This document shows positions 8,939-63,527 of a stretch of DNA of 64,000 bases, one piece after another. Origin of the DNA: an uncultured Candidatus Saccharibacteria bacterium. Lineage in GTDB: Bacteria > Patescibacteriota > Andersenbacteria > UBA10190. The notes under the pieces were generated by a model. That model was not told where the DNA came from. It did not search any database and worked only from the letters and a program-made list of their open reading frames with translations. The stretch's first letter is position 1; the number at the start of each line of letters is the position of its first letter. The position numbers were made by a program, and so were the translations under genes. The DNA lies in assembly GCA_964371255.1 (NCBI GenBank), contig CAYJKV010000002.1, forward strand, positions 66,553 through 130,552, given 5' to 3'.

Positions 8939-8968
8939 AGAATTATTTGCAATTAAAGGTCGTCAATA

Positions 8969-10423: not shown

Positions 10424-10451
10424 AGAATAATGATTTATTTTTGCTGCTCTT

Positions 10452-22423: not shown

Positions 22424-22443
22424 CACCCATATCTATTAATCCT

Positions 22444-23682: not shown

Positions 23683-23699
23683 TTTGCCACCTTATATCT

Positions 23700-41074: not shown

Positions 41075-41383
41075 TGTGGTTGAATCTGACATACTATTCT
41101 GCTCTTCCTCAAGCAGCGTCAATTGCCCTGTTGGTCTGACATTTTATCTTCATCAAAATATTTTCGTCATTTTGTTTACTAGATTTTGATGCTCAATCAA
41201 TCCCGTGGTCTTTCTAACCGTCGTCCTTCGGCCACGAGACCTAGTGGCTGATCGGACGGAAGTGAATTTAGTATCGGTCGCTATCTACCTCCCGACTTGC
41301 ATACAGCCAAGATTTGCGCTATATGTCATACTTCTAATTAACTATTCCCTCTTTTCTCTCTTTCCATTTTTTGTAAACAAATT

Positions 41384-44835: not shown

Positions 44836-44883
44836 TGTGATAAAGATGCTACTAGTCATAACCCATCCTAATTTGTTTGCACT

Positions 44884-46332: not shown

Positions 46333-46916
46333 TGAAACGTTTTTTTACAATTTCCTTAATCGGCCTGGTTCTGATTATTCTCTTCTTGGCAGCAAATTTC
46401 TTCCGTTCGTCTTCAGTCGCCGCTGGTTCTTTAGAAAATATTGATGGCATACCTTTTCCATTAGACGCCAATCGTCCCTTAGTCACGGAAAAGTTAGCCC
46501 ATGCTGATCTTTACCTTAATCATTCGCGTTTTGCCAGACGTCTGGAGCTGTCCATCACTTTCACCCCCCTGGGCCTTACTGGGTTGGCCGTGGGCATTAG
46601 AGATAATTCTTTTTGGCTCAGCTATAATAAAATAAATTTGTGCTGCTCAGAGGCTGAATTAGCGCAGCCAAATATTCCCTTAACTAAACTGATCACCATC
46701 CCAGTCACAGACAAATTGGCCGACCAGGATGGCTCGCTGGACCTTATGTTTTTTGCCACCTACCCCAACAGTCAATTAACCGAAGATGAGGGAGTATACG
46801 ATCGCACGCAATGGTTATTAAACAATTTAACAATAATTAATCGACCCGCTTGGCCTGACCTATCTTCCCTCCGGGACTTTATCAAATCCTCACTGCTCCG
46901 CGAACGTGCCTTATGA
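46317..46916 (+). CDS. hypothetical protein with an N-terminal signal-anchor
   Basis: 199 aa with N-terminal TM helix FTISLIGLVLIILFLAANFF. No family recognised. Overlaps its neighbours at both ends. Confidence 0.4.
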   Translation: MDRSLMKRFFTISLIGLVLIILFLAANFFRSSSVAAGSLENIDGIPFPLDANRPLVTEKLAHADLYLNHSRFARRLELSITFTPLGLTGLAVGIRDNSFWLSYNKINLCCSEAELAQPNIPLTKLITIPVTDKLADQDGSLDLMFFATYPNSQLTEDEGVYDRTQWLLNNLTIINRPAWPDLSSLRDFIKSSLLRERAL

Positions 46917-48382: not shown

Positions 48383-49995
48383 AAACTATGGACTCATCAA
48401 CCAGCCAAGCATCTGAATTCGCTCAAACTGCCACGTCAGCCGGCATGATTGGCCTGGCTGCTTTTGCTGGTTCTCTGGTGGGGTTCTTTTTGCAGCTGTT
48501 AGTGGCCTATTATTTTGGTGCTTCTAATCAGACTGACGCGTACTTTATGGCCCTCTCCACTTCGGAGCTTTTATCCAAACTGCTTCTCGGCGGATCAATC
48601 ACGGCTGTCTTCCTGCCCATGTTTATTAGCCGCCTCGCGCAAGGCAAGGCGCAAGCCGCTTGGCACATGGCTCTTAATTTGCTTCACCTGACACTCGTTG
48701 CGTTCGTTATTTTGTTAGCCTGCCTAGCCTTTTTTGCGGATCCTTTCGTCTCCTTCATCTCCCCTGGTTTTGATGCCGCAACGCATGAATTAACAACCCG
48801 TTTGTTATTAGTATTATTGCCGTCCTTTGCCGTTCTGTACTTGGTGGAATTGACTACTTCCATGCTTCAAGCGCTACATCATTTTTTTGTGCCGGCGCTG
48901 CTGCGCATTGTTTCCCCTGTTGTTTCTATCCTAACCATCCTGGCCTTAGTCAAATCGATTGGTATTTATGCGCTGGCATTAGGTGTAGTCATTGGTGCCT
49001 TCATCCAGCTATTCATGCTCCTCTCTACGCTTCGTCGGCAGGGTTTCTCGTATTCTTTTGTTTTTCAGCCCTTTGACCCGGCTATTAAGCGTCTTATTTA
49101 TCTGACCTATCCTTTCCTGTTATCCGTGCTTATTACTCAAGGTGCCGGCATTACCTACCGTATTCTTGTCTCCGACTTAGCCTCGGGCAGTTTAGCCGCC
49201 ATTAAATTTGCAGAAAAAATTACGCAATTATTAACGATCATCTTTTTAAACTCAGTTACTATGGTTATTTATCCGATCCTGTCTGCCAAGGCTGCTCAGC
49301 ATGACTGGTTGGGCATGCGCGATACTATCGCCAGTAGTATTCGCCTTATTTTCTTTGTCACAGTCCCGGTGATTACGGGTGTCGCCCTTCTTCGTCTTCC
49401 CTTGATCTCATTTATTTATCAACGGGGATCATTTTCTGCCTCCGACGCAGCGATGACCAGTGTGGCTTTGCTCTTTCTCGCGATCGGATTGACCACCAAT
49501 GGTATTAGTTCGGTCCTCGGTCACGCCACCTTAGCCTTGCAGGAAACTAGGGCAGCGGTCGCTGTTAGTATCGCGTCGCAAGCAGTGGCCATCTCGTTGT
49601 TCGTGCTATTGGTGCCCAAGTTGGCGCACGCCGGTCTGGCCCTAGCTTCTTCCTTGGTACCTCTCGCGATTGCTCTATTATATTTCCTTTATTTAACTCG
49701 TTTCCTCCCCCATTTGTCCTCTATCTTTATTCATTCCACCTATATTAAGACGATTGTTCTAACCCTGCTCATGGGAACACTTGTGTTCCTGATTAGCCCC
49801 TGGACAATGTTGATCACGGACACCCGGCCGGTCTCACTCTTCCTTCAGCTTGCTGTGCCCGCACTCCTCGGTGCTGCTTTCTTCATAACGGCCGCTTATC
49901 TTTGGCGTATACCTGAATTAATTCAGTTGCTGTCCATTGTTCGCCTGCGCTCTTCAAAACTAACACTGCTTTTCCGCCGGTCGTCGGCCGATTAA
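48379..49995 (+). CDS. MurJ/MviN-family lipid-linked oligosaccharide flippase
   Basis: 538 aa with 14 TM helices and the MurJ N-terminal signature YYFGASNQTDAYFMALSTSELLSKLLLGGSITAVFLPMF (the FGAS..DAF.......R.....G...AAF.P motif). Confidence 0.7.
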   Translation: MKTMDSSTSQASEFAQTATSAGMIGLAAFAGSLVGFFLQLLVAYYFGASNQTDAYFMALSTSELLSKLLLGGSITAVFLPMFISRLAQGKAQAAWHMALNLLHLTLVAFVILLACLAFFADPFVSFISPGFDAATHELTTRLLLVLLPSFAVLYLVELTTSMLQALHHFFVPALLRIVSPVVSILTILALVKSIGIYALALGVVIGAFIQLFMLLSTLRRQGFSYSFVFQPFDPAIKRLIYLTYPFLLSVLITQGAGITYRILVSDLASGSLAAIKFAEKITQLLTIIFLNSVTMVIYPILSAKAAQHDWLGMRDTIASSIRLIFFVTVPVITGVALLRLPLISFIYQRGSFSASDAAMTSVALLFLAIGLTTNGISSVLGHATLALQETRAAVAVSIASQAVAISLFVLLVPKLAHAGLALASSLVPLAIALLYFLYLTRFLPHLSSIFIHSTYIKTIVLTLLMGTLVFLISPWTMLITDTRPVSLFLQLAVPALLGAAFFITAAYLWRIPELIQLLSIVRLRSSKLTLLFRRSSAD

Positions 49996-50012
49996 TCTTA
50001 ATTTATAATCTT

Positions 50013-51101
50013 ATGTCATTCGCCGTCGTTGAATATTCCAGCAAATCGGGCGACATTTGGCGTCATACACCAGAGCGGCCTAATTATTTATGCGATCCCG
50101 CCCGGGTCATGGATCCAACAAGTTTTGGCTGTTATGTTTCTGCGCTGTCGGGGGAACACATCCCGCTGACAAAAATTATTAATGCTTCCCGCTTTCTTAA
50201 TCGCGTCCACAGAAAACTCCATGGTGCCTGGCCGACCAACTATTCATTGGATTACTTCACCAAGTTTGATCGCCTGTTAGTCGTCTATGAAGCAGCGAAT
50301 AGTCGTACTTTATCCACTTTTATCCACCGCCTGCAGCGAGAATTACCAAACCTCAAGATCCTGGGCGTTCCCACGCAACCTTATGGTTTGTTGCGTTTAC
50401 AGTGGCAGATTGAACCGCAGATTAAACTTGACCTGCAAGAGTTTATCAATAGTTGCGATATTTTTATTTCTATCGTTAAAAGCACGACCGACCTCTGGCA
50501 AAGTTTTACAACGCACCCGGTCCATTATTTACCTCAGCCGTATCCGGTCGAGCACGCGCTGCGTAATTGGCAACCCCGGTCAAGCAAACAGCCAATTATT
50601 TTTGTCTCTGGTGTGACCGCGCGGCCCAATATTCAGCTCGGCCACGAGGTTGCCTCAGCCTTGCAGCAACAATTCCCTGACCACATTATTCATGTCACTA
50701 ATACGCCTGATGCGCCGCTTGATTCAACTCATCTTCAAGGTCTGAAATACGAGGTTAAGCCCTTCTTGTCTTGGTCTGATCATCTGAGATATTTATCAAC
50801 TGTTAAATTAGTTATCAATACCGACTTTACGCAAACTAGAGGCCGCGTCCAAATGGATTGCGCGGCTGTCGGCACCCCATCAGTGGGAGCGGATTCCGAT
50901 GCTCAGCTGGACCTCTGGCCACATGGCGCTGCGGCACCTGACACACCCGTTAAGACGATTATCAAATCCGCTAGCCGTCTTTTGTCGGATAGCCACGTCT
51001 ACGAAGAGTGGGTGAAGTTTGCCCGGTCAAGACTGCCGTTTTATAACTATGCGCACAGTGCAGACCGCATGAATAGTTTATACTCGTTAATTAAAAAATA
51101 G
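50013..51101 (+). CDS. hypothetical protein, possibly a divergent GT-B-fold glycosyltransferase
   Basis: 362 aa. Weak similarity only (RVQMDCAAVGTPSVGADSD resembles the GT4 EX7E region). Confidence 0.35.
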   Translation: MSFAVVEYSSKSGDIWRHTPERPNYLCDPARVMDPTSFGCYVSALSGEHIPLTKIINASRFLNRVHRKLHGAWPTNYSLDYFTKFDRLLVVYEAANSRTLSTFIHRLQRELPNLKILGVPTQPYGLLRLQWQIEPQIKLDLQEFINSCDIFISIVKSTTDLWQSFTTHPVHYLPQPYPVEHALRNWQPRSSKQPIIFVSGVTARPNIQLGHEVASALQQQFPDHIIHVTNTPDAPLDSTHLQGLKYEVKPFLSWSDHLRYLSTVKLVINTDFTQTRGRVQMDCAAVGTPSVGADSDAQLDLWPHGAAAPDTPVKTIIKSASRLLSDSHVYEEWVKFARSRLPFYNYAHSADRMNSLYSLIKK

Positions 51102-51111
51102 CGCAACCTTT

Positions 51112-52209
51112 ATGTCTAAAGCTGCCTCGGAGCGATCATCTATCCTCACCCCTAAATTCTTAGTCCGTCATCTCGGCAATATGGGTGATATGATTTTTAT
51201 TGTTCCGCCTGTCTTGGCTGCTCTCAAGACCGACTACCCGGGCTGCCACATTACCCTGGTCACGTCATGGGGATACAAACAGCCATCACGCTGGCCGTTT
51301 TCTCAAACAACCTGGTGGGGTGAACGCAACCAAAGCGGTCACAGCCTGCATTTAATAATGACCAACCCACATATCGATCAATTAATTCATTGGCATGACC
51401 GGCGGCTCTCTTTATCTGGAACTATTTGTCATGAAGATGATCGCTCTTTTCCCACTTGGAATAAGTCTTATTATGAGGAGCAAGTGCGCAGCGGGCGCTT
51501 TGATCGCGTCATTGAATTGGATTTTGGTTTGTCCGTGACAGACAATCCTCTGACGCGCGCCTACGCCCAAGCTGGCCTCACTGGCGCTCGTCCGATCGAC
51601 TACCACCTGTATCTTACCGCCTCCGATCGTCAAATTGGCGAAGCTGTCATGTCCAATTTTCCCCGTCCGCGTATTGTCTTATTGGAGAGTCTAAGCCACC
51701 ATTCCACTCGCGGTTGGGATCCGGCTAAAGTGATTGCCTTGTCGTCGGCTATCACTGAAAAATATGGCGTTGAGCCGATTTGGTTCGGTTCCAAGTACCA
51801 TCATTATTATCATGGCCGTCCGCTTTCACTGCGCGAGAATATTGCTACTTTAACCGTCTGTGATGTGGGTATCGGAGTTTTATCCGGCCCGCTTCATTTC
51901 GCCGCTGCCGCCGGTCTGCCGACGCTGACGCTATACTGCGACCACCCGCTTCGCCGCGCGGCGCCAGCTTACTTTCAAAACCCCTCCTTGCCTCCTTCCA
52001 CCGTCCAACATCGCACCCTTCTGGGTCCGCATAAGATGCCAATGAGAATTTTGAAAGGGGATCGTGATTCGCTTTGCTTAACCCCAACCGAATTAGCTGC
52101 TCAAAATTTTATTAATTGGTCAAATCCAGGCAAGCAATCCACCAAGAGCTGCTTATCTGTTATTACTGTCGATGAAATCATGACCGTCCTTTCAGATATG
52201 CTAAAATAA
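51112..52209 (+). CDS. glycosyltransferase family 9 (heptosyltransferase-like)
   Basis: 365 aa with the N-terminal GT9 motif MGDMIFIVPPVLAALKTDYPGCHITLVTS and the C-terminal LSGPLHFAAAAGLPTLTLY. Confidence 0.65.
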   Translation: MSKAASERSSILTPKFLVRHLGNMGDMIFIVPPVLAALKTDYPGCHITLVTSWGYKQPSRWPFSQTTWWGERNQSGHSLHLIMTNPHIDQLIHWHDRRLSLSGTICHEDDRSFPTWNKSYYEEQVRSGRFDRVIELDFGLSVTDNPLTRAYAQAGLTGARPIDYHLYLTASDRQIGEAVMSNFPRPRIVLLESLSHHSTRGWDPAKVIALSSAITEKYGVEPIWFGSKYHHYYHGRPLSLRENIATLTVCDVGIGVLSGPLHFAAAAGLPTLTLYCDHPLRRAAPAYFQNPSLPPSTVQHRTLLGPHKMPMRILKGDRDSLCLTPTELAAQNFINWSNPGKQSTKSCLSVITVDEIMTVLSDMLK

Positions 52210-52285
52210 CCCCCTTGCCCCTCTTTACTACCTGTCATAATTTACATATAGATCTCACCTAATTTATTCTTCCATAAATATATAT

Positions 52286-53014
52286 ATGTCACCGCCAAAG
52301 ACAGCTCACGCCAACTCCATCTGGGTTATTATTCCTACGTATAATGAGAAACTAAATATCGGCCGTTTGGTCGCGGATATTTTTTCGCTGCCATTCGCTG
52401 ACCTTTCCGTTCTCATTGTGGATGATAATTCGCCTGACGGTACCGGCTCTTTGATCACTCAGCTACAAAACAAATACCCCCGGCTGTTTCTGCTCTCGCG
52501 TCCCGTCAAAAATGGCTTGGGCCGCGCATATGTTGATGGTTTTTCTTACGCCATTGGCCAGGGTGCCACGGCCATTGTTCAGATGGATGCCGACTTCTCT
52601 CACAACCCCGCCGACATTCCCCGCCTGCTTTCGTCTCTTGATCAGCATGATGTGGTTGTTGGTTCACGCTATGCTCATGGTATTAGCGTCATAAATTGGC
52701 CTCTGCGCCGGCTGCTGCTGAGTACCGGCGCTAACATTTATGCTGGTTTTATTACTGGCATGCCTTTTAAGGACTGTACAGGTGGCTTTCGGGCTTGGCG
52801 TGTCCATGTCTTAAAACAAATTAATTTCTCCGATGTGAAGGTTGACGGCTATGGGTTTCAGATTATTATGCTCTATCGCGCCTGGCGTCAACACAGTCGT
52901 ATCACGGAGATACCCATCATTTTCACTGAGCGGCGGGAAGGTCAGTCTAAAATGAGTCGGACTATTATTGCCGAAGCTATGCTTTTGGTTTGGAAATTGC
53001 GTCTTTTTGGTTAA
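52286..53014 (+). CDS. GT2 polyprenyl-phosphate mannosyl/glycosyl transferase (Dpm1/Ppm1-like)
   Basis: 242 aa with IWVIIPTYNEKLNI...LIVDDNSPDGT...GLGRAYVDG...QMDADFSHNP. Confidence 0.85.
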   Translation: MSPPKTAHANSIWVIIPTYNEKLNIGRLVADIFSLPFADLSVLIVDDNSPDGTGSLITQLQNKYPRLFLLSRPVKNGLGRAYVDGFSYAIGQGATAIVQMDADFSHNPADIPRLLSSLDQHDVVVGSRYAHGISVINWPLRRLLLSTGANIYAGFITGMPFKDCTGGFRAWRVHVLKQINFSDVKVDGYGFQIIMLYRAWRQHSRITEIPIIFTERREGQSKMSRTIIAEAMLLVWKLRLFG

Positions 53015-53036
53015 GCACCACTGACTCTATCGTTTC

Positions 53037-55283
53037 GTGAACCCATTACCGGCCAAGTCAATCACTCAGGCTTTCCCCCTTCTCTTCCTTTTGCTGATAA
53101 TCACTGCCGCGTTTTTTCCCTTGTTTATCGGTCGTTTTTATGCCATTGGTGACATCCGTGAGGTCTATATTCCGCTGGAATATTTTTTTCATAATCAGAT
53201 ATTAGCTGGGCACTTGCCTGCCTGGCTCGCCGACGCGGCCTGGGGGTTTCCGGTTATCGCCTCAGCGCAAATCGGTTTCTTCTACCCACCCTTACTCCTG
53301 CTGCGTTACCTGCCGCCCGCCATCTATTTGTCATTTCTGCTATTAATCCATTTTTTGTGGTTCGCCTTGGGTGCGTATCTTTTTTATCGGCGCTTTGTGT
53401 CATCAGCTGCTGCCGCGCTTGGCGCCCTGTCTTTATCTTTAGGCGGATTCGTAACCTTGCATCTGACGCATCTTAATATCATTTTTTCCCTAGCTTGGTT
53501 GCCTTGGCAGTTCCTGGTCATCTATTTACTCCGCCGTTCCCTGAGTACACGATCGGTGCTGAGTTTATCAGTCTTATTGGCGCTACCCTTTCTAGTCGGG
53601 CAGATCCAAGTTCCGCTTTTAATGTTTCTAGCCGCCAGTGCCTGGCTCCTTTATCTGCGTCATCGCCATCAATTATTATGGCGCCGCTCATTGCTCATTC
53701 TCGCCGCCCTTGTTATTTTGATGATTTTTATCAGTGCTGTTCAGCTTTTGCCGACCTATGAACTCATGCAGCAATCTACTCGGGATCTCTCTTCCACGTC
53801 CTTTGATCTGACTCGCGCTAATCAGCATAGTTTTCCCCTTTATCACTTGCCAACGGTTCTGTTTCCTCGGTTTTTTGCCAATGATAACCTCTATTGGGGC
53901 CGGCGTCTCCAAATCGAATATGGTTTGTACTTTGGTACGTTCCCTTTATTAGCGGCTTTTGTCTGTCTTTTCCGTCGTCGCTTCCATCAAGCGGTTTATG
54001 CCGACCCTCTTCCCCGTGTCGTACCCTTCTTTGCGGTTTTGTTAATCTTATCGTTCCTTTTCGCCCTCGGCTCCCTGTCACCTTTTCGCCTGATAAAAAT
54101 TGAACCATCATTATGGGTCTTTTCCGCGCCGGCTCGCTGGCTGCTGCTGACCAGTTTTTCTTTGTCGTTTTTTTCCGCTGTCGGCGCCGATCGTTTTTTT
54201 CGCGATCCTGCCCCCTGGCTACCTCTTATTCGTCGCTGCGTCATCGCTCTTTATGGCTTTGTCTTGCTGAGCCAATTTGCCCTTTGGCTGCTTATCAAAA
54301 CGGTGCCCGCCTGGCTTTATCCTGGGTTATCAGTTACTCATCAGGATAAAATCGCCTCGCTTTTAAATAGTGCTTTTCATTCCGGCCTAAGCTTACTTTC
54401 TCCTTATACTTATTTACCCTTGCTCGTGATCCTGATCTTCGCCTTGCGTTTTGTCCTCCGGCATCCGGCCCGGTGGGCTCTGTCGCTGACCGCTCTAGAA
54501 TTATTCATCCTCTTTATTACCACCACCCCGACCGTACCCTGGCGTGATATAACATCGCCGCCTGCTTCCTTAGCTGCCCTGCCTGAGGTTATCCGAACAG
54601 GACAAGCGCGCTTATATTCTATTCGTGACGGTGGCGATACCGGCGCCTATTTTACTGATCCTTCATCCCGCGCCAACGCCGCCATTCGTCAGCAGCAACG
54701 AGAATTACTCATACCCCTGATTCATACCCAATTTAACTTAGCCGGTATTGAATGGCCGGCCTCACTTGATTTATCAAATCATTCCGCCATTTTTTCCCAT
54801 CTTCGCGCCAATGACAGCTATCAATTAACGAATGCCGTTTTATCAAAAGAACTAAATATCGGCGCTGTCCTGACTTACAGCGGCCAATCAGCCCAAATTG
54901 AGGCTTTGGATTTCTCGCCTCGATTGGAAATAATTTCGCCGCAGAATATTTCCTCTCCTTTGCCCTATCCTTACTCGCCGGACGGCTCGTTTTCTATTGA
55001 CCTGCATGTCACCGAACCTTCGCGCCTGGTCGTCCGCGACTCTTTTTATCCTGGTTGGCGTGCTACTATTGATGAAAAACCAACACCGATCACCGCTTAC
55101 CGGGATATCTTCCGCCAGATTGCTCTTCCCGTTGGCCGTCACCACGTCTCTTTTTCCTACCGTCCTGTCTATTTATATGCCGGTATTATCATCTCGGCAC
55201 TGACCGCCAGCCTCATTCTGATTTATGTCTTGATTACTTACACCCATGATCGCCGATCCATCAACCTAACAGACAATCTATGA
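53037..55283 (+). CDS. large polytopic membrane protein (GT-C / YfhO-like candidate glycosyltransferase)
   Basis: 748 aa with about 14 TM helices across the first ~500 aa, a soluble domain and a terminal TM. It lies immediately downstream of a Dpm1-like GT2 gene. Confidence 0.45.
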   Translation: MNPLPAKSITQAFPLLFLLLIITAAFFPLFIGRFYAIGDIREVYIPLEYFFHNQILAGHLPAWLADAAWGFPVIASAQIGFFYPPLLLLRYLPPAIYLSFLLLIHFLWFALGAYLFYRRFVSSAAAALGALSLSLGGFVTLHLTHLNIIFSLAWLPWQFLVIYLLRRSLSTRSVLSLSVLLALPFLVGQIQVPLLMFLAASAWLLYLRHRHQLLWRRSLLILAALVILMIFISAVQLLPTYELMQQSTRDLSSTSFDLTRANQHSFPLYHLPTVLFPRFFANDNLYWGRRLQIEYGLYFGTFPLLAAFVCLFRRRFHQAVYADPLPRVVPFFAVLLILSFLFALGSLSPFRLIKIEPSLWVFSAPARWLLLTSFSLSFFSAVGADRFFRDPAPWLPLIRRCVIALYGFVLLSQFALWLLIKTVPAWLYPGLSVTHQDKIASLLNSAFHSGLSLLSPYTYLPLLVILIFALRFVLRHPARWALSLTALELFILFITTTPTVPWRDITSPPASLAALPEVIRTGQARLYSIRDGGDTGAYFTDPSSRANAAIRQQQRELLIPLIHTQFNLAGIEWPASLDLSNHSAIFSHLRANDSYQLTNAVLSKELNIGAVLTYSGQSAQIEALDFSPRLEIISPQNISSPLPYPYSPDGSFSIDLHVTEPSRLVVRDSFYPGWRATIDEKPTPITAYRDIFRQIALPVGRHHVSFSYRPVYLYAGIIISALTASLILIYVLITYTHDRRSINLTDNL

Positions 55284-56488
55284 AACTACTTATCTCAGTA
55301 CCAAGCGGTTATCATGCGCGTGAAATATTGCTCCCCTTGCAAACGCTATTAACAGCGGACAGCGCCATTGAGGCCGTTTATGTCATCACGCCGGCTGCCC
55401 CTTGGCAGACGGAACTTTTCCCTGGTTTTTCCGCTAAATTTTCCTGGCATACCAATCCTGCTACAACCTCAGGTCACGACGCCCTTCTCACCACGCTTAA
55501 ACCAGACCTAGTCTTAACCCCCACGATGGGTTTGGACCTGAAGGATACGCCTATTATTATATCTGCTCGTCAGTTTAACATTCCTACCCTCACCTTCATT
55601 TCCAGCTGGGATAATGTTTTCAAAATTTCGCGTCTCATGCAACGGGGTTATGCCAAGCATGTAAAAAATCACACGACCCCATATGCCATGCCTGATTACT
55701 TTGCCGTCTGGAACCAGCTCAACGCCGATCATCTCTTTCGCCTCTTCCCCTCCCTGCACCCGGCGCAAGTGGTTATAACCGGGCCGCCTCGTTTCGACTA
55801 CTTCTCCCATACTGACCGCATCCCGGCTAAGGCAGATTTATTTGCCTATCTTAATATCACTGCCGACCCCTCTGACACTAGCCTCATCCATTGTGCCACG
55901 ACCGAGCTCTACCCGTTAAATTACGTGATTAAACGTATCCATCAGGCCGCCCTGCGGCATCAATTAACTGGCCCGGTTAGTTTGTATGCTTCCGTTCATC
56001 CCGGCGGTGACATATCGAAACATTCTTACCAAAAATACGGCGCGTCCGTCCGCTACTCATTTGGTCGCCGTGCCGTCTCTCCTCATCCCGACTTTATTTA
56101 TCTACCCACTGTCCAGGAAATATATTTATTAGTCGCGTTGTTCCAGCATTCGTCCTTATTAATTAACCAGTCATCTACCGTCGCTATCGAATCGATGCGG
56201 GCTAATAGACCAGTCATCAATGTGATGTACGGCCGCGCTTTTGACTGGTGGCGTTGGCGGCGCTCCATGGTCTATCGCGACTTTCAGCAGCATTATCGAT
56301 ATATTACCAACAACCATGGCACTACCCTCGTCAAGCATTCACGATCTCTAATACCGGCCATCAATGACTATTTAACAAGGCCGACGCTGCATAGCCATGA
56401 ACGCCGCATTACTGCCCAGAAATTAATCACTTACACGGATGGTAGTTCAGCTCGTCGGCTAATTGATCTGGCTAAGTCCATTGTTTGA
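55280..56488 (+). CDS. hypothetical protein (possibly a GT-B-like or glycerophosphotransferase-like fold)
   Basis: 402 aa. No confident motif. Confidence 0.35.
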   Translation: MKLLISVPSGYHAREILLPLQTLLTADSAIEAVYVITPAAPWQTELFPGFSAKFSWHTNPATTSGHDALLTTLKPDLVLTPTMGLDLKDTPIIISARQFNIPTLTFISSWDNVFKISRLMQRGYAKHVKNHTTPYAMPDYFAVWNQLNADHLFRLFPSLHPAQVVITGPPRFDYFSHTDRIPAKADLFAYLNITADPSDTSLIHCATTELYPLNYVIKRIHQAALRHQLTGPVSLYASVHPGGDISKHSYQKYGASVRYSFGRRAVSPHPDFIYLPTVQEIYLLVALFQHSSLLINQSSTVAIESMRANRPVINVMYGRAFDWWRWRRSMVYRDFQQHYRYITNNHGTTLVKHSRSLIPAINDYLTRPTLHSHERRITAQKLITYTDGSSARRLIDLAKSIV

Positions 56489-56535
56489 CAGTGACGCGTA
56501 TTAGTTCTTTAATGATTGCTCTATAGCTATTTTTT

Positions 56536-57399
56536 ATGAAATTTCATTATATCTCACATCCGCGCCGCAATCCGACAATTACCGCCTCCCTACGCCAAGC
56601 TTGCCGCCGCCGGGGAGTTGAATTTGTGCTGGTTAATCCCTTCCATTTTGACTTCACGGATCCAGAGTCTTTACCCCGGTCGGGTGATGCTGTTTACCGC
56701 TCATTAGCCAGGACGGCTGGCAACGGTTTATCCAGAACCGTTGAACGATGGCTCCTCCACGAACAAGTCGCTACTTTTTATACCTCTTATGAACGAGCCC
56801 TTAGTCAATGGCCTCAATCTTATGTTATTCACGCCAAGCATGGTTTGCCTCAGCCGCTCACTGTCTGGAACGTGCCGCGCGACCGTCAGTTGATTGATCG
56901 TTATGTCGATTTTGTGCAAGGCTACCCGGTCATCATTAAAATCACCGGCGGCAGCCATGGCGTCGGGGTTTTAAAAGCGGACTCCGCGTCTTCCCTTTAT
57001 TCAATCATTGATTATCTCCATGGCATCAACACTCCCGCCATCATCCGCCAGTTTATACATGCCAGACATTCAGCGCGCTTGATTGTCTTGGGTGATAAAG
57101 TGGTCGCCAGTATTGAATATAGCGCTCCCGAACATGATTTTCGTACGAATATTGGCCGTCACCCCATCGTTAAACCCAAGGAATTTCCCGCCGCTATCAA
57201 ACGCCTAGCCGTGCAGGCAGTCTCAACCATGGGTAACCAATTTGGGGGCGTAGATATTTTGATCGATTCAAACGGCCGGCCCTACATCACCGAGATGAAT
57301 TTCCCCTGTAATTTTGCCCGCGCTGCCAACGCTACTAATATCGACATCGCCGGACTGATGATCGATTTCTTAATATCCAAATCTTTACCTCATGTTTAA
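56536..57399 (+). CDS. ATP-grasp ligase (RimK / D-Ala-D-Ala-ligase-like fold)
   Basis: 287 aa with YPVIIKITGGSHGVGVL, ARLIVLGDKVVASIEYSAPEHDFRTNIG and GGVDILIDSNGRPYITEMNF, which map onto the ATP-grasp B-loop and Mg-binding motifs. Confidence 0.7.
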   Translation: MKFHYISHPRRNPTITASLRQACRRRGVEFVLVNPFHFDFTDPESLPRSGDAVYRSLARTAGNGLSRTVERWLLHEQVATFYTSYERALSQWPQSYVIHAKHGLPQPLTVWNVPRDRQLIDRYVDFVQGYPVIIKITGGSHGVGVLKADSASSLYSIIDYLHGINTPAIIRQFIHARHSARLIVLGDKVVASIEYSAPEHDFRTNIGRHPIVKPKEFPAAIKRLAVQAVSTMGNQFGGVDILIDSNGRPYITEMNFPCNFARAANATNIDIAGLMIDFLISKSLPHV

Positions 57400-58051
57400 G
57401 CGCGGTTATATATCAATAGTCTTTGATGATGGCTATGAAGCAGTCTATCAAAATGCCCTGCCGGCCTTGCGCCGCTTTAACCTGCCAGCAGTTTTTGCCT
57501 TGCCGCTAAACGGGGAAAAACTAGCAAAAACAGAACGTCGCGCCGTTCGTCCTTGGACCCAATGGCTGTCGCTTGTGCGGGAGGGTCATGAGATCGCTTC
57601 GCATTCTGTCAACCATCTGAACCTGACTCGTTTGTCTGCCGCTGAACTGAATCTTGAGCTAACCGAATCTGCGCAAAAACTCAACGCCGTAACTTTAGTC
57701 TATCCAGGCGGTGCGGTTAATGATGACGTCGCCCAAGCAGCCTCGCAATATTATCAAGCCGGCCGCACCGTTCATTATGGTTTTGAAACGGTCCCCCCCC
57801 AAGAACCGATGCGACTGCGCTCATACAATTTTTCCCGCCGTAATTTCACTGTCTGGAAGGCTAATCTGTTAGCCCTGTGGGCGTATTTAAGCGATAGCTG
57901 GTTAATTGAAACCTACCATCTGGTCGATGACTTAGATCAAATAACCGTTCATAACGTTCCCACCAAAGACTTTGTTCGCCACCTCTCTTTTATTAAGCGC
58001 CTGCCTGTCCGGGTGCAAACTATTAAAGATATTATTAATTTATCTAAATAG
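57392..58051 (+). CDS. polysaccharide deacetylase (NodB homology domain, CE4)
   Basis: 219 aa with SIVFDDGYEAV (Asp-Asp metal/catalytic motif) and EIASHSVNH (His motif). Contains a C8 homopolymer at 57793..57800. Confidence 0.75.
   Translation: MFKRGYISIVFDDGYEAVYQNALPALRRFNLPAVFALPLNGEKLAKTERRAVRPWTQWLSLVREGHEIASHSVNHLNLTRLSAAELNLELTESAQKLNAVTLVYPGGAVNDDVAQAASQYYQAGRTVHYGFETVPPQEPMRLRSYNFSRRNFTVWKANLLALWAYLSDSWLIETYHLVDDLDQITVHNVPTKDFVRHLSFIKRLPVRVQTIKDIINLSK
57793..57800 (+). repeat. poly-C(8) homopolymeric tract inside the CE4 deacetylase CDS
   Basis: Seen directly: gtCCCCCCCCaag, encoding VPPQ. The only 8-nt G/C homopolymer I noticed in the window. Confidence 0.9.
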
Positions 58052-58059
58052 CTGCCGAC

Positions 58060-58905
58060 ATGCTTTCCGCTATTGTCATTACCCGCAACGAAGAGGACTC
58101 CATTGCCGGCTGTCTCGCAAGTTTATCCTTTGCTGACCAGGTTGTGGTGGTCGATTCCGGCAGTACTGATAATACCGTGTCAGTCGCGCGGCAGCGCGGT
58201 GCCCAAGTCTATACCCATGCTTGGTCCAGCTATGGTGATCAGAAAAATTTTGGCGCCTCCAAAGCATTAGGGCAGTGGCTATTGTTTATTGATGCAGACG
58301 AGCAGGTCTCCCCTGCCTTAGCTACCACCATCACCGCCTTGGTCGGTAATACTGCCGCCGCTCCGCCTCATGATTTTTATTGGCTGCGCATTATTACCGT
58401 CTTCCTCAATCGTCCGCTACCTCATTTATTTGGCAATAACGTCCGTCTATTTAAAAAATCTGCCGGCCAGTGGGACACGGCCCCCGTTCATGAGCAAGTC
58501 CTGACCGCGACTGACCAGACCATTAAACTCGGCGATCAATGGTCAGGCCGGCTTTTCCCGCCCCTGTTTCATTACTCGCATCGCACAGTGACCTCATATC
58601 TTACTAAGATGTATCACTATACTACTCTCGATGCCCGGCACATGTTCCGCACACAGCGTCATCGGTCCGGTAAAAAATATTACCCCTCGGTATTTCTGCC
58701 CTATCGATTATTTGTTCGTCAACTGGTTAAACTGCTTTTTTACCGGCGTGGTTTTATGGACGGTTTAGCTGGCTGTCTCTGGTGTGTGTTGTCTGCTTAT
58801 TATGAATTTGATATGGCCAAAAAATATAATCGGCTTAGCCGAACGCCTCCTCAATACCCGCTTCAGGCTGCCGCGCCTGATCAGCCAGCAGAAAAAGCGG
58901 ATTAA
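58060..58905 (+). CDS. glycosyltransferase family 2
   Basis: 281 aa with LSAIVITRNEEDSIAGCLASL...VVVVDSGSTDNT and FIDADE. Confidence 0.8.
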   Translation: MLSAIVITRNEEDSIAGCLASLSFADQVVVVDSGSTDNTVSVARQRGAQVYTHAWSSYGDQKNFGASKALGQWLLFIDADEQVSPALATTITALVGNTAAAPPHDFYWLRIITVFLNRPLPHLFGNNVRLFKKSAGQWDTAPVHEQVLTATDQTIKLGDQWSGRLFPPLFHYSHRTVTSYLTKMYHYTTLDARHMFRTQRHRSGKKYYPSVFLPYRLFVRQLVKLLFYRRGFMDGLAGCLWCVLSAYYEFDMAKKYNRLSRTPPQYPLQAAAPDQPAEKAD

Positions 58906-58913
58906 TTATTCTT

Positions 58914-60065
58914 ATGCGGATCGTCCATACTTGCTTGCGTTACCCCCCCGCTACTGGCGGTGTGGAAACCTATGTACAACAACTGGTCACTCGCACCCGT
59001 AATATTGAGCAGCAGATTGATGTCCGAGTCCTCACCAGTAAAATGCGCACCCATGGTCCGATTTCCGACTTGTCACCGGACTTATTGTTAGACGATCCGC
59101 CATACGTGCAGCGCCTCCATCACCTGGCTACTCCCTTTGTTTCCTACCCTCGTTTGCAGGCCCTCAAATATTATTTGACCCATCATAACCCTGACATTGT
59201 TCACGGCTACAGCTTTTGGTACCAGCCGGCCGATGTCGCTGCCCGCTGGGCAGCCCAACATCGCCGCCTCTTTATTTTTCATCCGATGTACTACGAATCA
59301 GTCAGGCGAAAGAAACTCACCTGGCAGATTTATTGCCGAACCATCGGCTATCGGACTTTCGCGGCCGCTGATGCCGTGGTCGTTATTTCTCCTTATGAGC
59401 AAAGCCTGATTACGCGGGCCGGCTTTCCGGTTAAACGGTTTTATCTAATTCCACCTGGCATAGACATTTCTGAATTTAATCATCCCGGTATCAATCCATA
59501 TCCTTCGTCCTCGTCGATCGCTCCTATTATCCTTTGTGTCTCACGTTTGTCGGCTGAAAAGAAACTTCAGGACGTAATATCCGTCATGCCGCAAGTGCTG
59601 CACCATGCTCCCCACGCTCATCTTTTTCTAGTCGGCGAGGATTTTGGTTATCAGTCAGAGCTCCGGGCCTTAATAAATAAACTTGACCTCTCCGGCCACG
59701 TCCATTTTCTTGGCCGCCTCAGTCGTCAGCAGCTGCTTGGTGCCTATCAACATGCCGATCTTTTCATTCATCCTTCTAATTATGAAGCTTTTGGCATTGT
59801 CGTGGCAGAGGCGATGGCCGCTCGCCTGCCTGTCATCGCTCGCGACACCTCTGCCATACCATACGTTGCCCCGCATCGTCAGGCCGCTCTTCTATTCCGT
59901 ACTCAAAACGATCTCACGGCCAATATCTTGACTGTGCTTAGAGACAACAAATATGCACAAACTCTCACCAACAACGCCTATCAACGAGTTCTGACGAACT
60001 TCACGTGGGATTTAACTCAAAAAAAAGTGGCCGATCTTTACTCAGGGTTACTGACTAAAGATTAG
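58914..60065 (+). CDS. glycosyltransferase family 4
   Basis: 383 aa with SNYEAFGIVVAEAMAARLPVIARDTSAIPYV. Contains a C7 tract at codons 10-12 (58943..58949). Confidence 0.85.
   Translation: MRIVHTCLRYPPATGGVETYVQQLVTRTRNIEQQIDVRVLTSKMRTHGPISDLSPDLLLDDPPYVQRLHHLATPFVSYPRLQALKYYLTHHNPDIVHGYSFWYQPADVAARWAAQHRRLFIFHPMYYESVRRKKLTWQIYCRTIGYRTFAAADAVVVISPYEQSLITRAGFPVKRFYLIPPGIDISEFNHPGINPYPSSSSIAPIILCVSRLSAEKKLQDVISVMPQVLHHAPHAHLFLVGEDFGYQSELRALINKLDLSGHVHFLGRLSRQQLLGAYQHADLFIHPSNYEAFGIVVAEAMAARLPVIARDTSAIPYVAPHRQAALLFRTQNDLTANILTVLRDNKYAQTLTNNAYQRVLTNFTWDLTQKKVADLYSGLLTKD
58943..58949 (+). repeat. poly-C(7) homopolymeric tract at the 5' end of the GT4 CDS
   Basis: Seen directly: taCCCCCCCgct, encoding YPPA at codons 10-12. 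Confidence 0.9.
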
Positions 60066-60469
60066 TCACTGAACGCCAGGTTGTCTTGTCCACTCGCGGC
60101 GCAAAGCTGCTCGGCTAAAGACAGGAGGGAATGCGATTGGATGTGCGCAATTTGTCTGGGATGAAATTCCTGGAAATCAACAAACTTGGTTAAATGTCGA
60201 TCATCATCACCAACCAAAATCACGACAAATGGGCCATGCGCATTTTGCTTAAGGGCCTCCTCCGCATTGCTGATCTCTGTTTGTTGCTTGACGTTTCTGC
60301 CCAGTCGATTCACCTCATCCAATACAACCATGTGCACATTATCATAAACTTCATAGAGGCCTTCCCACTGTTCAAAACCCAACACGCTGACCTGAAAACC
60401 TGCCTGTGCTAAAGTTCCAACAATGCCGGTTGGTTCGTCAGATACTACAATTGCCTTCCTGTCTCTCAT
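60062..60469 (-). CDS. hypothetical stand-alone receiver (CheY-like)-fold protein
   Basis: 135 aa with an alternating beta/alpha pattern and acidic residues at receiver-like positions (VVSDEP...VVLDE...VVILVGDDD...TKF). Weak call. Confidence 0.35.
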   Translation of the reverse strand: MRDRKAIVVSDEPTGIVGTLAQAGFQVSVLGFEQWEGLYEVYDNVHMVVLDEVNRLGRNVKQQTEISNAEEALKQNAHGPFVVILVGDDDRHLTKFVDFQEFHPRQIAHIQSHSLLSLAEQLCAASGQDNLAFSD

Positions 60470-60551: not shown

Positions 60552-61625
60552 ATGTCAAACCTTAACTATCTCATCCTGTCGCTCTCCGGCATCGGTAACT
60601 ATCTCATGCACACCGCTCTTATTCACGCCATTAAAGTACATCAGCCAACCGCTACCATTACTCTCTGGGTGGCCCCTCGTCACACGGCGGTTCTCGCCCA
60701 GGCCAACCCCGACATTGATCATGTTATTAAGGCTCCTATCAAGCGCTCATTGTTGGGCCACCTGCAACAAGTTATCAGGTTGCGTCATTTATCCCCTGAC
60801 ACGGGATTCATTCTTTACCCGGGACAACTTTGGAAGAGTGCGCTCTACGTTTTTTTAGCGGGGGCTTACCGGCGTGTCGGACATCGTTATATGCATCTAG
60901 GTAATCCTGACAGTTCATTATTACTGACTAATCCGGTCAATGTTAATCCCGCGCTGCATGATATTGATCAAAATCTCGCGCTGCTGCAACCGTTGTCCAT
61001 CCCAATTCCGTCTGCCCTGCCCCCTTATTTTGTCACGATACCGACCCATTATCAGCAACAGGCGAAATCACTTCTAGCCCGCGTGCACCATTCATCCCCC
61101 GCCGCTAAAATTTACTTCGGTCTTCACCCCGGCTCTGCGCCAGATTTTGCCTGGAAACGCTGGCCGATTGAACGATATGCCAGCCTGGCTAAGCAAATAA
61201 TTAAAAAGTATCACGCTCATGTTTTAATATTCGGCGGCGCTCAAGAACTTACGCTCATGAAAAACCTTCGCCGTCTCATCGGCCCGGACCATTCGTCTAT
61301 AATGTCTGCCCACTTGCTCACCGTCGCGGCCCTGATGAAAAATTGCCAATTATTTATCGCTAATGACTCAGGGCTAATGCATCTTTCCTCGGCCTTGTCT
61401 GTTCCGACTATTGGTCTATTTGGTCCCACCAATGAGCGTCGCACGGGTCCTCGCGGTCAAGGCAGCGTGCCACTGCGCGCTCCCGGCACTGCCCCTGTTT
61501 ATGACGTCAACACAAACTACGCCCTGGGCTCAAGCCCTCATCCGTTCATGTTGGCTCTTAACACTTCCCTGGTTATGGCGGCAGTAGAAAATATACTAAA
61601 TCAACCCCCGGCTCAATCGTCGTAG
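60552..61625 (+). CDS. glycosyltransferase family 9 (heptosyltransferase-like)
   Basis: 357 aa with LILSLSGIGNYLMHTALIHAIK and the C-terminal IANDSGLMHLSSALSVPTIGLFGPTN. Confidence 0.7.
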   Translation: MSNLNYLILSLSGIGNYLMHTALIHAIKVHQPTATITLWVAPRHTAVLAQANPDIDHVIKAPIKRSLLGHLQQVIRLRHLSPDTGFILYPGQLWKSALYVFLAGAYRRVGHRYMHLGNPDSSLLLTNPVNVNPALHDIDQNLALLQPLSIPIPSALPPYFVTIPTHYQQQAKSLLARVHHSSPAAKIYFGLHPGSAPDFAWKRWPIERYASLAKQIIKKYHAHVLIFGGAQELTLMKNLRRLIGPDHSSIMSAHLLTVAALMKNCQLFIANDSGLMHLSSALSVPTIGLFGPTNERRTGPRGQGSVPLRAPGTAPVYDVNTNYALGSSPHPFMLALNTSLVMAAVENILNQPPAQSS

Positions 61626-61630
61626 CACTT

Positions 61631-62596
61631 TCACCCCGCTTGTTTTACGCCGGGTTTTACTGCCTTTTCTTCTCGCGCGACATCATTCGTGTCCATTCTG
61701 TTAATGGCATATCTAATATCCCGCCAAGAACCTATTGTTTCCCCACCTTTTGTAGTAAAGGCGGCAGCACAACCTAGCTTCTTCAGAATTGCCTCAGTTT
61801 CTTTATTGTATGAGCCATAGGGATAACACATCGTCCAGCCAACCTCGGGAACTCCAATACTAATCAGCGCCCTTAAAGCTTGATCAATTTCCTCTTGTTG
61901 TTTCTCCCGTGACAATTTTTCCAACCAAACATGATTATAACCATGGTTGCCAACTGTCATGCCGTCTTCCAGCAACTGCTTAACTTCACCTACCTTCATG
62001 TAAAGCCCATCTGCGATTGATCTTTCATCTTGCCCCACGTGTTGAGCAAACATCTCATTAATAATTAACGTTCGTACTCGATCCGGCAGCGCGAACTGAA
62101 GCATGCTTTTGATATATTTAATTTCCGCGCTATCAAATCTTCCGGGTTTGCCATATTCTCGCCAATATTCACTAATTTGCCACAACGTGTCTTCTCCGCG
62201 TCGCTGCTCAATCATCGCATGCATCGTCTTAATTATATCAAGAGGCCTGATTCCTCGGCCCAGTATCAATTGAATCTTATTTGTTTCTGTGATCTTTCTT
62301 TCCCACACCGCCCGGCTAGAGATAAAAAATATCGCGGCCACCTTTTCTTCCGCCAAAATCGGCCTTACAGTCGTAAAGTGCTCCCGGTAACCGTCATCGA
62401 ATGTCAATAATATATCCGTACGTGGCAACACCTTATTTTGCTTTACGCTCTCCAAAAAATCCGTTGGGGTAATAATTCTGCCGCTCCTCCTGAGTAAGTT
62501 TAATTGCCGCCGAAATTGATCAACGGATAACGCCTTCAGCTGCGGCCACTTACTACCCGCCACGTCTCTCACGTAGTGGTAGTTAACTATGCGCAT
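61631..62596 (-). CDS. polysaccharide deacetylase (NodB domain, CE4)
   Basis: 321 aa with ILLTFDDGYREHF and VGNHGYNH motifs. Confidence 0.8.
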   Translation of the reverse strand: MRIVNYHYVRDVAGSKWPQLKALSVDQFRRQLNLLRRSGRIITPTDFLESVKQNKVLPRTDILLTFDDGYREHFTTVRPILAEEKVAAIFFISSRAVWERKITETNKIQLILGRGIRPLDIIKTMHAMIEQRRGEDTLWQISEYWREYGKPGRFDSAEIKYIKSMLQFALPDRVRTLIINEMFAQHVGQDERSIADGLYMKVGEVKQLLEDGMTVGNHGYNHVWLEKLSREKQQEEIDQALRALISIGVPEVGWTMCYPYGSYNKETEAILKKLGCAAAFTTKGGETIGSWRDIRYAINRMDTNDVAREEKAVKPGVKQAG

Positions 62597-62618
62597 GTCA
62601 GCCAGCTTTAATTGTCAT

Positions 62619-63527
62619 CTAGTCTTTAACACCATGAATCATAAACGCGGAGGCTTGCCCGATCAGTCTTAAATCATGAGCATACTCCTGCAGGAGATTC
62701 GCTATTTCAAAATGAATACGAGGCTCGCTGGTTTTAAAACTGGGCGGACCGCAATGGATATGCACCGGGCCGACACCATCAATCCTGAAACCTTCGCGAT
62801 CCATAATTTTCATCAACTGGATCGGCGTATATTGATAGCGTGAGCCCACGGCAATGCCGGTGTTGGCATGAATCATCTCTTCGTTCTGCATCGGCGCAAC
62901 CGTCATCTCGAGCAGCTCCCGCACCGGTCGGTGGTCATTGAGCGCCACAATTTCGGCCGCCAACGTTTCCACTGTTCCCTCGGCTATTTCGCCGGCCGTG
63001 TATTCATTAGCGGACATCATATTAAATAATCGATTACGCGAGCTCACGACCAATGACCCTCCTGGCTTTAAAATACGGTAAGCATCATTAAAAAAATCGT
63101 CCCGTTGCTCATAGGAGATATATTCGATAAAGCCATTCGCGACCACCACGTCATAACTTTTATCCTCGACGTGCCAATCAAAGAAATCGGCCAAAATAAA
63201 CTCCGCCAAGCTTATTTTATCGTCTATCGCCCGCTGATGAGCTAAGTCCACCATTCCCCCCGCGATGTCAATCCCAGTCGCTTTAATCCCCATTTTCGCT
63301 GTTTCACAAACTAGATCACCTACCCCGCTGCCAATATCCAATAAATACTTAGTCTCTGTCCGTTTCTTTAATACTGCGAGCACGTAATCATTGCGCTGCT
63401 TTATGACATTCACTTTATTTATAACCAGTCCATCTGCCTTACGCTCCCAATCCTGCGCCTTTTCGTCAAAAAATCTCTTTGCTTCTTCTTGCTGCTTGGT
63501 GCGTTGAATTTTTTCCCGTATGTTCAT
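62619..63527 (-). CDS. class I SAM-dependent methyltransferase
   Basis: 302 aa with motif I LLDIGSGVGDL and post-I/II motifs GIDIAGGMV and ILKPGGSLVVS. Confidence 0.8.
   Translation of the reverse strand: MNIREKIQRTKQQEEAKRFFDEKAQDWERKADGLVINKVNVIKQRNDYVLAVLKKRTETKYLLDIGSGVGDLVCETAKMGIKATGIDIAGGMVDLAHQRAIDDKISLAEFILADFFDWHVEDKSYDVVVANGFIEYISYEQRDDFFNDAYRILKPGGSLVVSSRNRLFNMMSANEYTAGEIAEGTVETLAAEIVALNDHRPVRELLEMTVAPMQNEEMIHANTGIAVGSRYQYTPIQLMKIMDREGFRIDGVGPVHIHCGPPSFKTSEPRIHFEIANLLQEYAHDLRLIGQASAFMIHGVKD

Follow-up and report, generated by a model that had tools for sequence, protein, structure and literature searches.

Background

Enzymes of the RimK family of ATP-grasp ligases (RimK, LysX/ArgX, MptN and CofF) activate the carboxylate of a large substrate and add to it the amine of a free amino acid, and the G and M domains of cyanophycin synthetase CphA1 extend carboxylates. 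Another logic, in which a substrate is deacetylated and then acylated, is known from the pathways of NodB and NodA, MshB and MshC, BshB and BshC, and LpxC and LpxD, where NodB is a cytoplasmic member of carbohydrate esterase family 4 (CE4). TupA-like ATP-grasps, such as the C-terminal domain of Campylobacter jejuni Cj1438, are encoded among glycosyltransferases and form an amide on a surface glycan (PMC11800379), and the Shewanella operon sfmABCDE for nonulosonate modification includes an ATP-grasp gene (PMC3765264). Glycans that carry amino acids or peptides include the teichuronopeptide of Bacillus halodurans, in which poly-glutamate is linked with polyglucuronate (PMC8153356), as well as Leg5GluNMe7Ac of Clostridium botulinum and the peptidylamido-Fuc3N glycan of Clostridioides difficile type B, whose locus contains a D-Ala-ligase-like gene (PMC5207245). 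Here we analyze a 64,000-nucleotide stretch of contig CAYJKV010000002.1 (hereafter "the window"), in which the gene of a RimK-like ATP-grasp ligase (open reading frame (ORF) of 287 aa with an ATG start, plus strand, 56536..57399) runs into the gene of a CE4 or NodB-type deacetylase (ORF of 219 aa with an ATG start, plus strand, 57392..58051).

The locus is a long cell-envelope glycan operon of an Andersenbacteria-like bacterium of the Candidate Phyla Radiation (CPR); the closest named homologues of both proteins come from Candidatus Andersenbacteria and other Patescibacteria. Taken together, the results presented below suggest that the ligase probably serves to decorate the precursor of an amino sugar or acidic sugar with an amino acid or peptide, as an accessory step in which the acceptor may be either an amine or a carboxylate.

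Sequence and structure analysis of the two enzymes

The ATP-grasp protein is soluble, with an isoelectric point of 9.7 and neither a transmembrane segment nor a signal peptide. It matches the Pfam family PF08443 (RimK ATP-grasp) over residues 98-278 with 85.9 bits (cut-off 21, E 3.6e-24), and 432 homologues were found at E<=1e-3 among the candidates scored. A search of the PDB with a profile of 22 homologues placed RimK (5zct) first, with 117 bits over residues 89-276, followed by ArgX/LysX, PsnB and Ddl, while biotin carboxylases scored far weaker. The AlphaFold2 (AF2) model, with a predicted local distance difference test (pLDDT) score of 92.3, shows the three-domain ATP-grasp fold, and Foldseek again retrieved RimK 5zct at the top (E 2e-22, template modeling (TM) score 0.81), followed by ArgX/LysX, PsnB and Ddl. 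Residues K135, D240, E253 and N255, which align to RimK, are invariant in sets of 22 and of 119 homologues, as is the DFRSN loop; by analogy, K135 is expected to be the ATP-binding Lys and D240, E253 and N255 the Mg-binding residues. Because RimK, ArgX/LysX and Ddl are the top matches in both sequence and fold, carboxylases are far weaker, and the catalytic residues are invariant, the protein is, as judged from its sequence and model, an intact RimK-like amide ligase of the ligase type. This is what the earlier note had predicted: a best homology to carboxylases or biotin-dependent enzymes was looked for, and RimK, LysX/ArgX and Ddl were found instead. The sugar-transfer-associated ATP-grasp family (PF14397) was rejected with 21.3 bits against a cut-off of 31.4. 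The TupA-like glycan amidoligases (Cj1438C type) were likewise rejected, as no match to ATPgrasp_TupA (PF14305) was detected in Pfam at E<=0.01 and the 64-kb window contains no UDP-sugar dehydrogenase.

The deacetylase matches Pfam PF01522 (Polysacc_deac_1) with 67.1 bits (cut-off 23.1, E 1.9e-18) and has 259 homologues at E<=1e-3 among the candidates scored. Its AF2 model (pLDDT 96.1) exhibits a (beta/alpha) barrel fold and is matched by Foldseek to CE4 enzymes with probability 1.0; the best PDB sequence match is PplD (6dq3). Invariant in 17 aligned homologues are D12 and D13 (FDDGY), H71 and H75 (HSVNH), Y104-P-G-G107, R125 and H176. The metal triad D13, H71 and H75 (Asp-His-His) aligns with the first two motifs of PplD and PgaB; a missing His-His-Asp triad was looked for and the Asp-His-His residues proved invariant, in agreement with the deacetylase assumed previously. 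Following the order of motifs, D12 is the putative catalytic base Asp (motif 1) and H176 the putative catalytic acid His (motif 5). Motif 3 reads V-Y-P-G-G and is devoid of the Arg of the canonical RxPY, as in PplD/PgaB-like alignments, and the invariant R125 might act as a substitute. The deacetylase has no signal peptide or transmembrane segment. Since this is true of both enzymes and the ligase depends on ATP, the cytoplasmic side is where the two should be active. The reading that we favor is that of a metal-dependent, cytoplasmic de-N-acetylase forming part of the core of the cassette; the idea that its action could yield a uronic acid with a free carboxylate is chemically wrong.

Conservation of the cassette and its ligases

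The stop of the ATP-grasp gene does overlap the start of the deacetylase gene, as had been noted: the overlap read from the sequence (ATGTTTAA, plus strand, 57392..57399) comprises 8 nt, with the ATG of CE4 at 57392-57394 and the TAA stop of the ligase at 57397-57399, 2 nt further on. In orthologous loci (designated here by L numbers) the ATGNNTAA overlap is kept in L006, L097 and L013, whose ATP-grasp is 59-76% identical to that of the window; variants of the junction comprise a GTG-start overlap in L008 and a 2-nt spacer in L024. The ATP-grasp gene is found immediately upstream of CE4 in the window and in L006/7/17/18, L097, L013, L008 and L024 (45-79% identity); the orthologs at the same operon position show 76% identity in L006/7, 63% in L097, 59% in L013, 52% in L008 and ~45% in L024. 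The conserved core comprises CE4 and glycosyltransferases of families 2 and 4 (GT2, GT4), in part also of family 9 (GT9), usually with a TagB-like gene before CE4, and the ATP-grasp gene is a lineage-restricted accessory insert between the TagB-like gene and CE4. In the CE4 tree, the loci with ATP-grasp form one group nested among loci devoid of it, with L024 apart. The bootstrapped neighbor-joining tree of the ATP-grasp family contains two CE4-linked subclades (98% and 100%) whose union obtains only 30%, and leaves L024 unplaced; it would fit either one recruitment followed by losses or several recruitments. The CE4-linked clade retains all invariants of the family and differs only in loops of the N-domain (an insertion with P47; S84, R87 and S95), which would fit a change of partner substrate with the chemistry left as it was.

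Two of these loci encode a further ligase. In L008 (7457-8455, minus strand) the CE4 gene is directly followed by that of a 332-aa ATP-grasp of another type, which matches the G region of cyanophycin synthetase with 196.8 bits. We term the window's own ATP-grasp family q-type and this longer (~310-340 aa) partner family p-type; the L008 protein is an ortholog (42-46% identity) of the partners found in L098, described below. In L024 (5612-6925) the gene directly after CE4 encodes a 437-aa Mur-ligase-like protein that matches the M region of cyanophycin synthetase with 183 bits. Because the q-type, the G-like and the M-like ligases all adjoin CE4, three kinds of amide ligase gather at this gene. 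The window itself contains no p-type partner and no G-like or M-like gene.

More distant cassettes, with CE4 at 35-43% identity, contain precursor genes between the TagB-like gene and CE4. These comprise the genes of a NeuB-family synthase (L025, L028 and L031-33), of a CMP-sugar synthetase (CTP_transf_3; L028 and L031-33), and of either a 4,6-dehydratase (L025, L031-33) or a UDP-sugar dehydrogenase (L028 and L029, directly upstream of CE4). Because these loci hold genes of activated-sugar synthesis there, the slot of the ATP-grasp is the slot of precursor-making. Judging from these genes, the glycan family would thus include sugars with both N-acetyl groups and carboxylates. The 64-kb window encodes no enzyme of uronic-acid or nonulosonic-acid synthesis (no NeuB, CTP_transf_3 or UDP-sugar dehydrogenase), and no such gene was found in the Andersenbacteria-like loci. 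As a separate observation, the NeuB-family synthases with their SAF domain are fused to an AP_endonuc_2/xylose-isomerase-like TIM barrel, giving proteins of 592-632 aa (L025, 2-1780; L028, 1369-3261; L031, 154-2052; L032, 991-2871; L033, 1771-3648), and the 4,6-dehydratase gene of L032 (2926-4962, 678 aa) is split by an intein-like insert with a LAGLIDADG domain.

The ATP-grasp family in the CPR

An exhaustive profile search revealed about 446 representative clusters of the ATP-grasp family at E<=1e-30, and a scan of the genome collection with the ATP-grasp profile gave at least five loci. Several members occur in arrays: p-type, q-type and p-type genes followed by an M23 peptidase in L098 (Andersenbacteria, 2831-5656), one q-type and two p-type genes in L002 (Kerfeldbacteria, 8001-10734), five consecutive ATP-grasp genes in L001 (Parcubacteria, 4874-10021), a DUF218 gene, two other ATP-grasps and a q-type gene in L009 (4044-6867), and a p-type followed by a q-type gene in L010; in L011 and L012 the q-type gene stands alone. 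The arrays of L001, L002, L009 and L098 number three to five ATP-grasp genes, and in each of them the window's family is combined with partners like the G region of cyanophycin synthetase. For the p-type partners, matches were obtained to this G (ATP-grasp) region (197 bits) as well as to the ATP-grasp parts of N-acetylglutaminylglutamine synthetase and GshF, because of which the family at large looks like machinery for amino-acid or peptide ligation. We favor the reading that the operon ATP-grasp was recruited from this CPR-wide family.

The only fusion partners found for the q-type ATP-grasp are another ATP-grasp (proteins of 564-620 aa) and a 2-oxoglutarate-Fe(II) (2OG-Fe(II)) oxygenase; no fusion to a glycosyltransferase was detected among the fusions sought. 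The proteins with two ATP-grasps are P0241, P0255, P0328, P0329 and P0338, and the 2OG-Fe(II) oxygenase is located N-terminally to the q-type domain in L004 (7284-8801, Polyangium jinanense), P0354 and P0356.

Proposed function and alternative explanations

That the ATP-grasp enzyme decorates the glycan in some way appears to us moderately probable. A tentative, more specific scenario is that CE4 bares a sugar amine and the ligase attaches an amino acid there, as an accessory decoration of a glycan precursor. CE4 would remove the N-acetyl group from a sugar of a soluble (nucleotide-activated) or polyprenyl-linked precursor in the cytoplasm, whether or not the ATP-grasp is present. With ATP, the ligase would convert an acidic amino acid, most likely glutamate as judged by analogy with RimK-family enzymes, into its acyl-phosphate, and attack by the amine freed by CE4 would yield an N-aminoacyl amino sugar, which the TagB-like transferase and GT2, GT4 and GT9 would build into the glycan. 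In sister lineages, the G-like ATP-grasp (L008) or the M-like Mur-type ligase (L024) might lengthen the residue into a short peptide.

The earlier note had proposed that the pair installs an aminoacyl or peptidyl amide. What speaks for it are the intact cytoplasmic enzymes, whose identities and catalytic residues are evident, the accessory yet positionally conserved ligase gene, with adjacency maintained down to ~45% identity, the extra ligases after CE4 in two sister loci, and the known precedents. What we infer is which substrates are used, in which polarity they are ligated and how the reaction is linked to the product of CE4, and a number of observations weigh against the proposal. At least 13 related loci (L014-16, L019-21, L026-27, L025, L028, L031-33) have CE4 without an adjoining ATP-grasp. 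In eight of them (L014, L015, L016, L019, L020, L021, L026 and L027) the operon is the same and there is a 4-nt overlap between CE4 and the TagB-like gene, with CE4 homologues about as distant as those in the ATP-grasp-bearing loci; in L014-L016, no ATP-grasp of the window's family is present within ±7 kb of CE4. Clearly, CE4 works without the ATP-grasp in related bacteria, and it follows from these loci that deacetylation with subsequent reacylation is not the basic logic of the cassette and that the free amine is not made for the ligase. Homologues of the ligase at 40-51% identity are not beside CE4, and most reside in ATP-grasp arrays without glycan genes; the family occurs mostly outside glycan loci; no fusion of the ATP-grasp to CE4 was found among the best 150 and the best 120 matches. 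Overlaps occur at 6/15 same-strand junctions (from ORF coordinates, 40346 to 60065). Because overlaps are common in the operon, and because in loci devoid of the ATP-grasp CE4 has such an overlap with the TagB-like gene, the ATP-grasp/CE4 overlap is a matter of operon co-expression and indicates no specific partnership; of the translational coupling claimed for the pair, the overlap is real, but coupling is generic in the operon and does not single out these two genes. Besides, the polarity of the RimK family would, by analogy, be opposite to the acylation of a sugar amine, the window lacks uronic-acid genes, and the identity of the substrates is deduced entirely from gene context.

The polarity is accounted for by the somewhat doubtful alternative that the ligase amidates a carboxylate, joining the amine of an amino acid to a carboxylate that the glycan precursor already bears, be it at C6 of a uronic acid, at C1 of a nonulosonic acid or in a lactyl or pyruvyl group, with cyanophycin-synthetase-like ligases extending the product and CE4 as a mere neighbor. 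All of the closest characterized relatives of the ligase activate the carboxylate of the large substrate, and the G/M-like ligases near CE4 resemble domains of CphA1, which extend carboxylates. The distant cassettes encode NeuB/CMP-sugar synthetase and UDP-sugar dehydrogenase, and therefore the glycan family would include acidic sugars. The C. jejuni Cj1438 ATP-grasp amidoligase is proven to act on C6 of glucuronic acid (PMC11800379), and in L008 and L024 the ATP-grasp gene overlaps the TagB-like gene by 4 nt. Against it, no gene of uronic- or nonulosonic-acid synthesis was found in the window or in the Andersenbacteria-like loci, the ligase lacks a match to the TupA family (PF14305), and the ligase genes all cluster around CE4 specifically. 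The ligase could also be merely co-expressed with the glycan genes, while making or extending a small peptide or poly-amino acid, or modifying the C-terminus of a protein. This we regard as unlikely, even though the homologues at 40-51% identity are found in arrays of 2-5 ATP-grasp genes without glycan genes (L098, L002, L001, L009, L010) or alone (L011, L012), the fusions to ATP-grasp or 2OG-Fe(II) oxygenase suggest that the substrates are amino acids or peptides, the fold neighbors act on proteins or peptides, and the CE4-linked clade keeps all of the family invariants. The position of the gene in the operon has been kept over deep divergence in small genomes, the window has no p-type partner, further ligases are clustered at CE4 in L008 and L024 too, and the 135-aa protein encoded nearby (see below) has no conserved acidic C-terminus that could serve as the tail of a carrier. 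That protein was considered as a LysW/S6-like carrier and rejected, its C-terminus not being conserved.

Two further assignments derive from the best matches of the ligase. RimK is the closest in both sequence and structure, and one database source calls a homologue "S6 modification protein", yet a true RimK that polyglutamylates ribosomal protein S6 is highly improbable: the protein reaches 91.1 bits against a cut-off of 331 in the RimK equivalog model NF007764 and 108.2 against 143.4 in the family model rimK_fam (TIGR00768), it has no match to Rimk_N (PF18030) in Pfam, the alignment with RimK begins only at residue 89 and leaves the N-domain unaligned, where RimK has its HRGG and SPG loops this protein reads xGxxP and FPC(F/N)F, and its neighbors are glycan genes and not translation genes. 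Barely credible is a graspetide maturase, which would introduce side-chain ester or amide cross-links into the precursor of a peptide that is made by ribosomes and modified post-translationally. PsnB is among the fold matches (TM-score about 0.7), graspetide clusters are known in which a RimK-type ligase adjoins a deacetylase/GT2 fusion gene (PMC11912497), and NCBIfam gives a weak match to a peptide maturase (TIGR04187), but the score of 29.5 bits compares with a cut-off of 350. There is no room for a precursor gene, because the ligase gene is flanked by a 47-nt gap upstream and by the overlap downstream, and no precursor peptide gene is conserved in the syntenic loci.

Accessory decoration of a sugar precursor remains our preferred reading. 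An extension of it, which we consider quite unlikely, is that some CPR bacteria build an oligo- or poly-amino-acid chain on a sugar of the wall glycan, started by the RimK-like ligase and extended by the G/M-like ligases, with the amine freed by CE4 or the carboxylate of a nonulosonate or uronate as the anchor. If true, this would be a peptide-glycan conjugate made without ribosomes, tRNA or the Mur pathway, and the ATP-grasp arrays of the CPR would be a free-standing version of the same peptide-making machinery. CPR bacteria (Patescibacteria) live attached to other cells, yet their surface chemistry is almost wholly unexplored. If the preferred reading of an accessory decoration is true, the locus marks a switchable amino-acid or peptide decoration on a conserved envelope glycan, and the relatives with and without the ATP-grasp provide a natural comparison. 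The ligases that join amino acids to the sugars of O-antigens, capsules and flagellar glycans are mostly unassigned, and a 287-aa ligase with a partner deacetylase would offer a biochemically tractable handle on them. The practical value is moderate, as precedents for the logic exist and the substrate assignment remains predicted.

Organization of the operon

At the start of the window are rpoA and rpsS4-type genes, after which comes a dcw-like cell-wall cluster. From ~24.8 kb on, the window consists nearly entirely of glycan genes according to Pfam, including those of GT2, GT4 and GT9 glycosyltransferases, flippases resembling Wzx and MurJ, a protein with a Wzy_C domain, and membrane proteins of the YfhO and DUF6541 types. 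The order of genes in the operon is: hypothetical, GT9-like, polyprenyl-phosphate GT2, YfhO, TagB-like, ATP-grasp, CE4, GT2, GT4, a small minus-strand gene and GT9, with a second CE4 and a methyltransferase located 3' of the operon on the minus strand. Promoter and terminator scans detected no promoter- or terminator-like site between the operon genes, and Rfam and tRNA scans of the window yielded nothing informative.

Upstream of the ligase, a polyprenyl-phosphate-sugar synthase-like GT2 (242 aa; Pfam PF00535, with PpgS/AglJ/ArnC-like NCBIfam matches that are all below cut-off) is followed by a YfhO-type membrane glycosyltransferase (748 aa, PF09586; together 52286..55283, plus strand). The next gene encodes the TagB/TagF-like transferase (Glyphos_transf, BFO_1060-like; 402 aa, 55280..56488, plus strand; PF04464, 28.4 bits), which matches the NCBIfam model BFO_1060_trans weakly (48.4 bits, cut-off 200) and yielded no PDB match in single-sequence or profile searches. 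BFO_1060 represents a Tannerella family of transferases of nonulosonic (pseudaminic/legionaminic) acid with a TagB domain (PMC5420450), and the TagB-like protein is a candidate transferase for a CMP- or CDP-activated sugar. Downstream of CE4, the conserved core continues with the GT2 (281 aa, 58060..58905, plus strand; PF00535), syntenic in all loci of the family, and the GT4 (383 aa, 58914..60065, plus strand; PF00534/PF13439), also supported by synteny. Between GT4 and GT9 lies a small, fast-evolving minus-strand gene (135 aa, 60062..60469) that belongs to no family, is undetectable beyond close relatives, and is limited to the main ATP-grasp-bearing clade (window, L006, L097, L013 and probably L008), being absent from L014-L016. 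The syntenic GT9 (357 aa, 60552..61625, plus strand), also of the conserved core, matches the heptosyltransferase family (PF01075, 99.6 bits) and, with 103.8 bits, below cut-off, NCBIfam heptosyltransferase II. The second CE4 deacetylase (321 aa) and an S-adenosylmethionine-dependent methyltransferase (302 aa), both identified by Pfam, are convergent with the operon (61631..63527, minus strand), and the pair is kept in L006 and L097. This second CE4 displays a PgaB-like N-terminal motif.

Other features of the window

Beside the dcw-type cluster (20894-24716, plus strand), genes of a Mur ligase resembling MurF (509 aa), a sugar aminotransferase of the DegT/PseC/ArnB kind (412 aa) and a transferase of the FemAB family (338 aa) occur together, an unusual trio that hints at a modified peptidoglycan precursor or bridge. 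A single 879-aa ORF (29757-32396, minus strand) encodes a Wzx-type flippase (Polysacc_synt_3) fused to a GT4 domain. Amid housekeeping genes, three minus-strand ORFs encode a Baseplate_J-like protein (3162-4601), a TraG/VirD4-type coupling ATPase with a treble-clef zinc finger (7259-8938) and a protein with sigma70_r4 and HARE-HTH domains (10452-11528). The GC skew is negative in every 2-kb bin of the window (1-64000; -0.11 to -0.28), regardless of gene strand.

Comparison with known systems

The window ligase resembles the RimK family (RimK, LysX/ArgX, MptN, CofF) in its fold (TM-score about 0.8), the DFRSN loop, residues K135/D240/E253/N255 and the size of ~285 aa, and presumably shares with it the chemistry of an amide ligase acting through an acyl-phosphate. 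It differs in scoring below the curated cut-offs, in the divergent N-domain, in the replaced HRGG and SPG loops and in its context, which is a glycan operon or an ATP-grasp array. With the TupA-like amidoligases it has in common an ATP-grasp encoded among glycosyltransferases; however, these belong to another ATP-grasp subfamily, and the window ligase is not fused to a glycosyltransferase and has no uronic-acid gene in the window. In CphA1, the G domain is an ATP-grasp and the M domain is Mur-ligase-like; stand-alone homologues of both, G in L008 and the p-type partners and M in L024, accompany the ATP-grasp family of the window, whereas the window ligase itself is RimK-like and not CphA-like.

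The deacetylase shares the fold and motifs of ArnD, HfsH and PplD, of which PplD was ranked first by sequence in the PDB and ArnD was retrieved by fold, but its scores are far below the equivalog cut-offs and the TM-scores are only 0.55-0.74. The polyprenyl-phosphate GT2 and the GT-C (YfhO) gene in the window operon parallel arnC and arnT. The systems NodB/NodA, MshB/MshC, BshB/BshC and LpxC/LpxD are alike in that a sugar amine is unmasked in the cytoplasm and then receives a new acyl group, as we propose here. In those systems neither step is dispensable and the second enzyme is from a different family, whereas the ligase described here is optional, most of the related cassettes being devoid of it. 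Finally, the systems with amino sugars that bear amino acids or peptides carry the kind of amide on a sugar amine that is proposed for the window, with ATP-grasp or D-Ala-ligase-like and methyltransferase genes in their loci, and the window cassette family is linked to NeuB/CMP-sugar genes in its distant relatives. In those systems, however, the ligases are only predicted and belong to other ATP-grasp subfamilies, and the window is devoid of nonulosonate synthesis genes. Read in this way, the locus would be of a known kind in its ATP-grasp amino-acid decoration of surface glycans and its deacetylate-then-acylate logic, and new in that its ligase belongs to an uncharacterized CPR branch of the RimK family.

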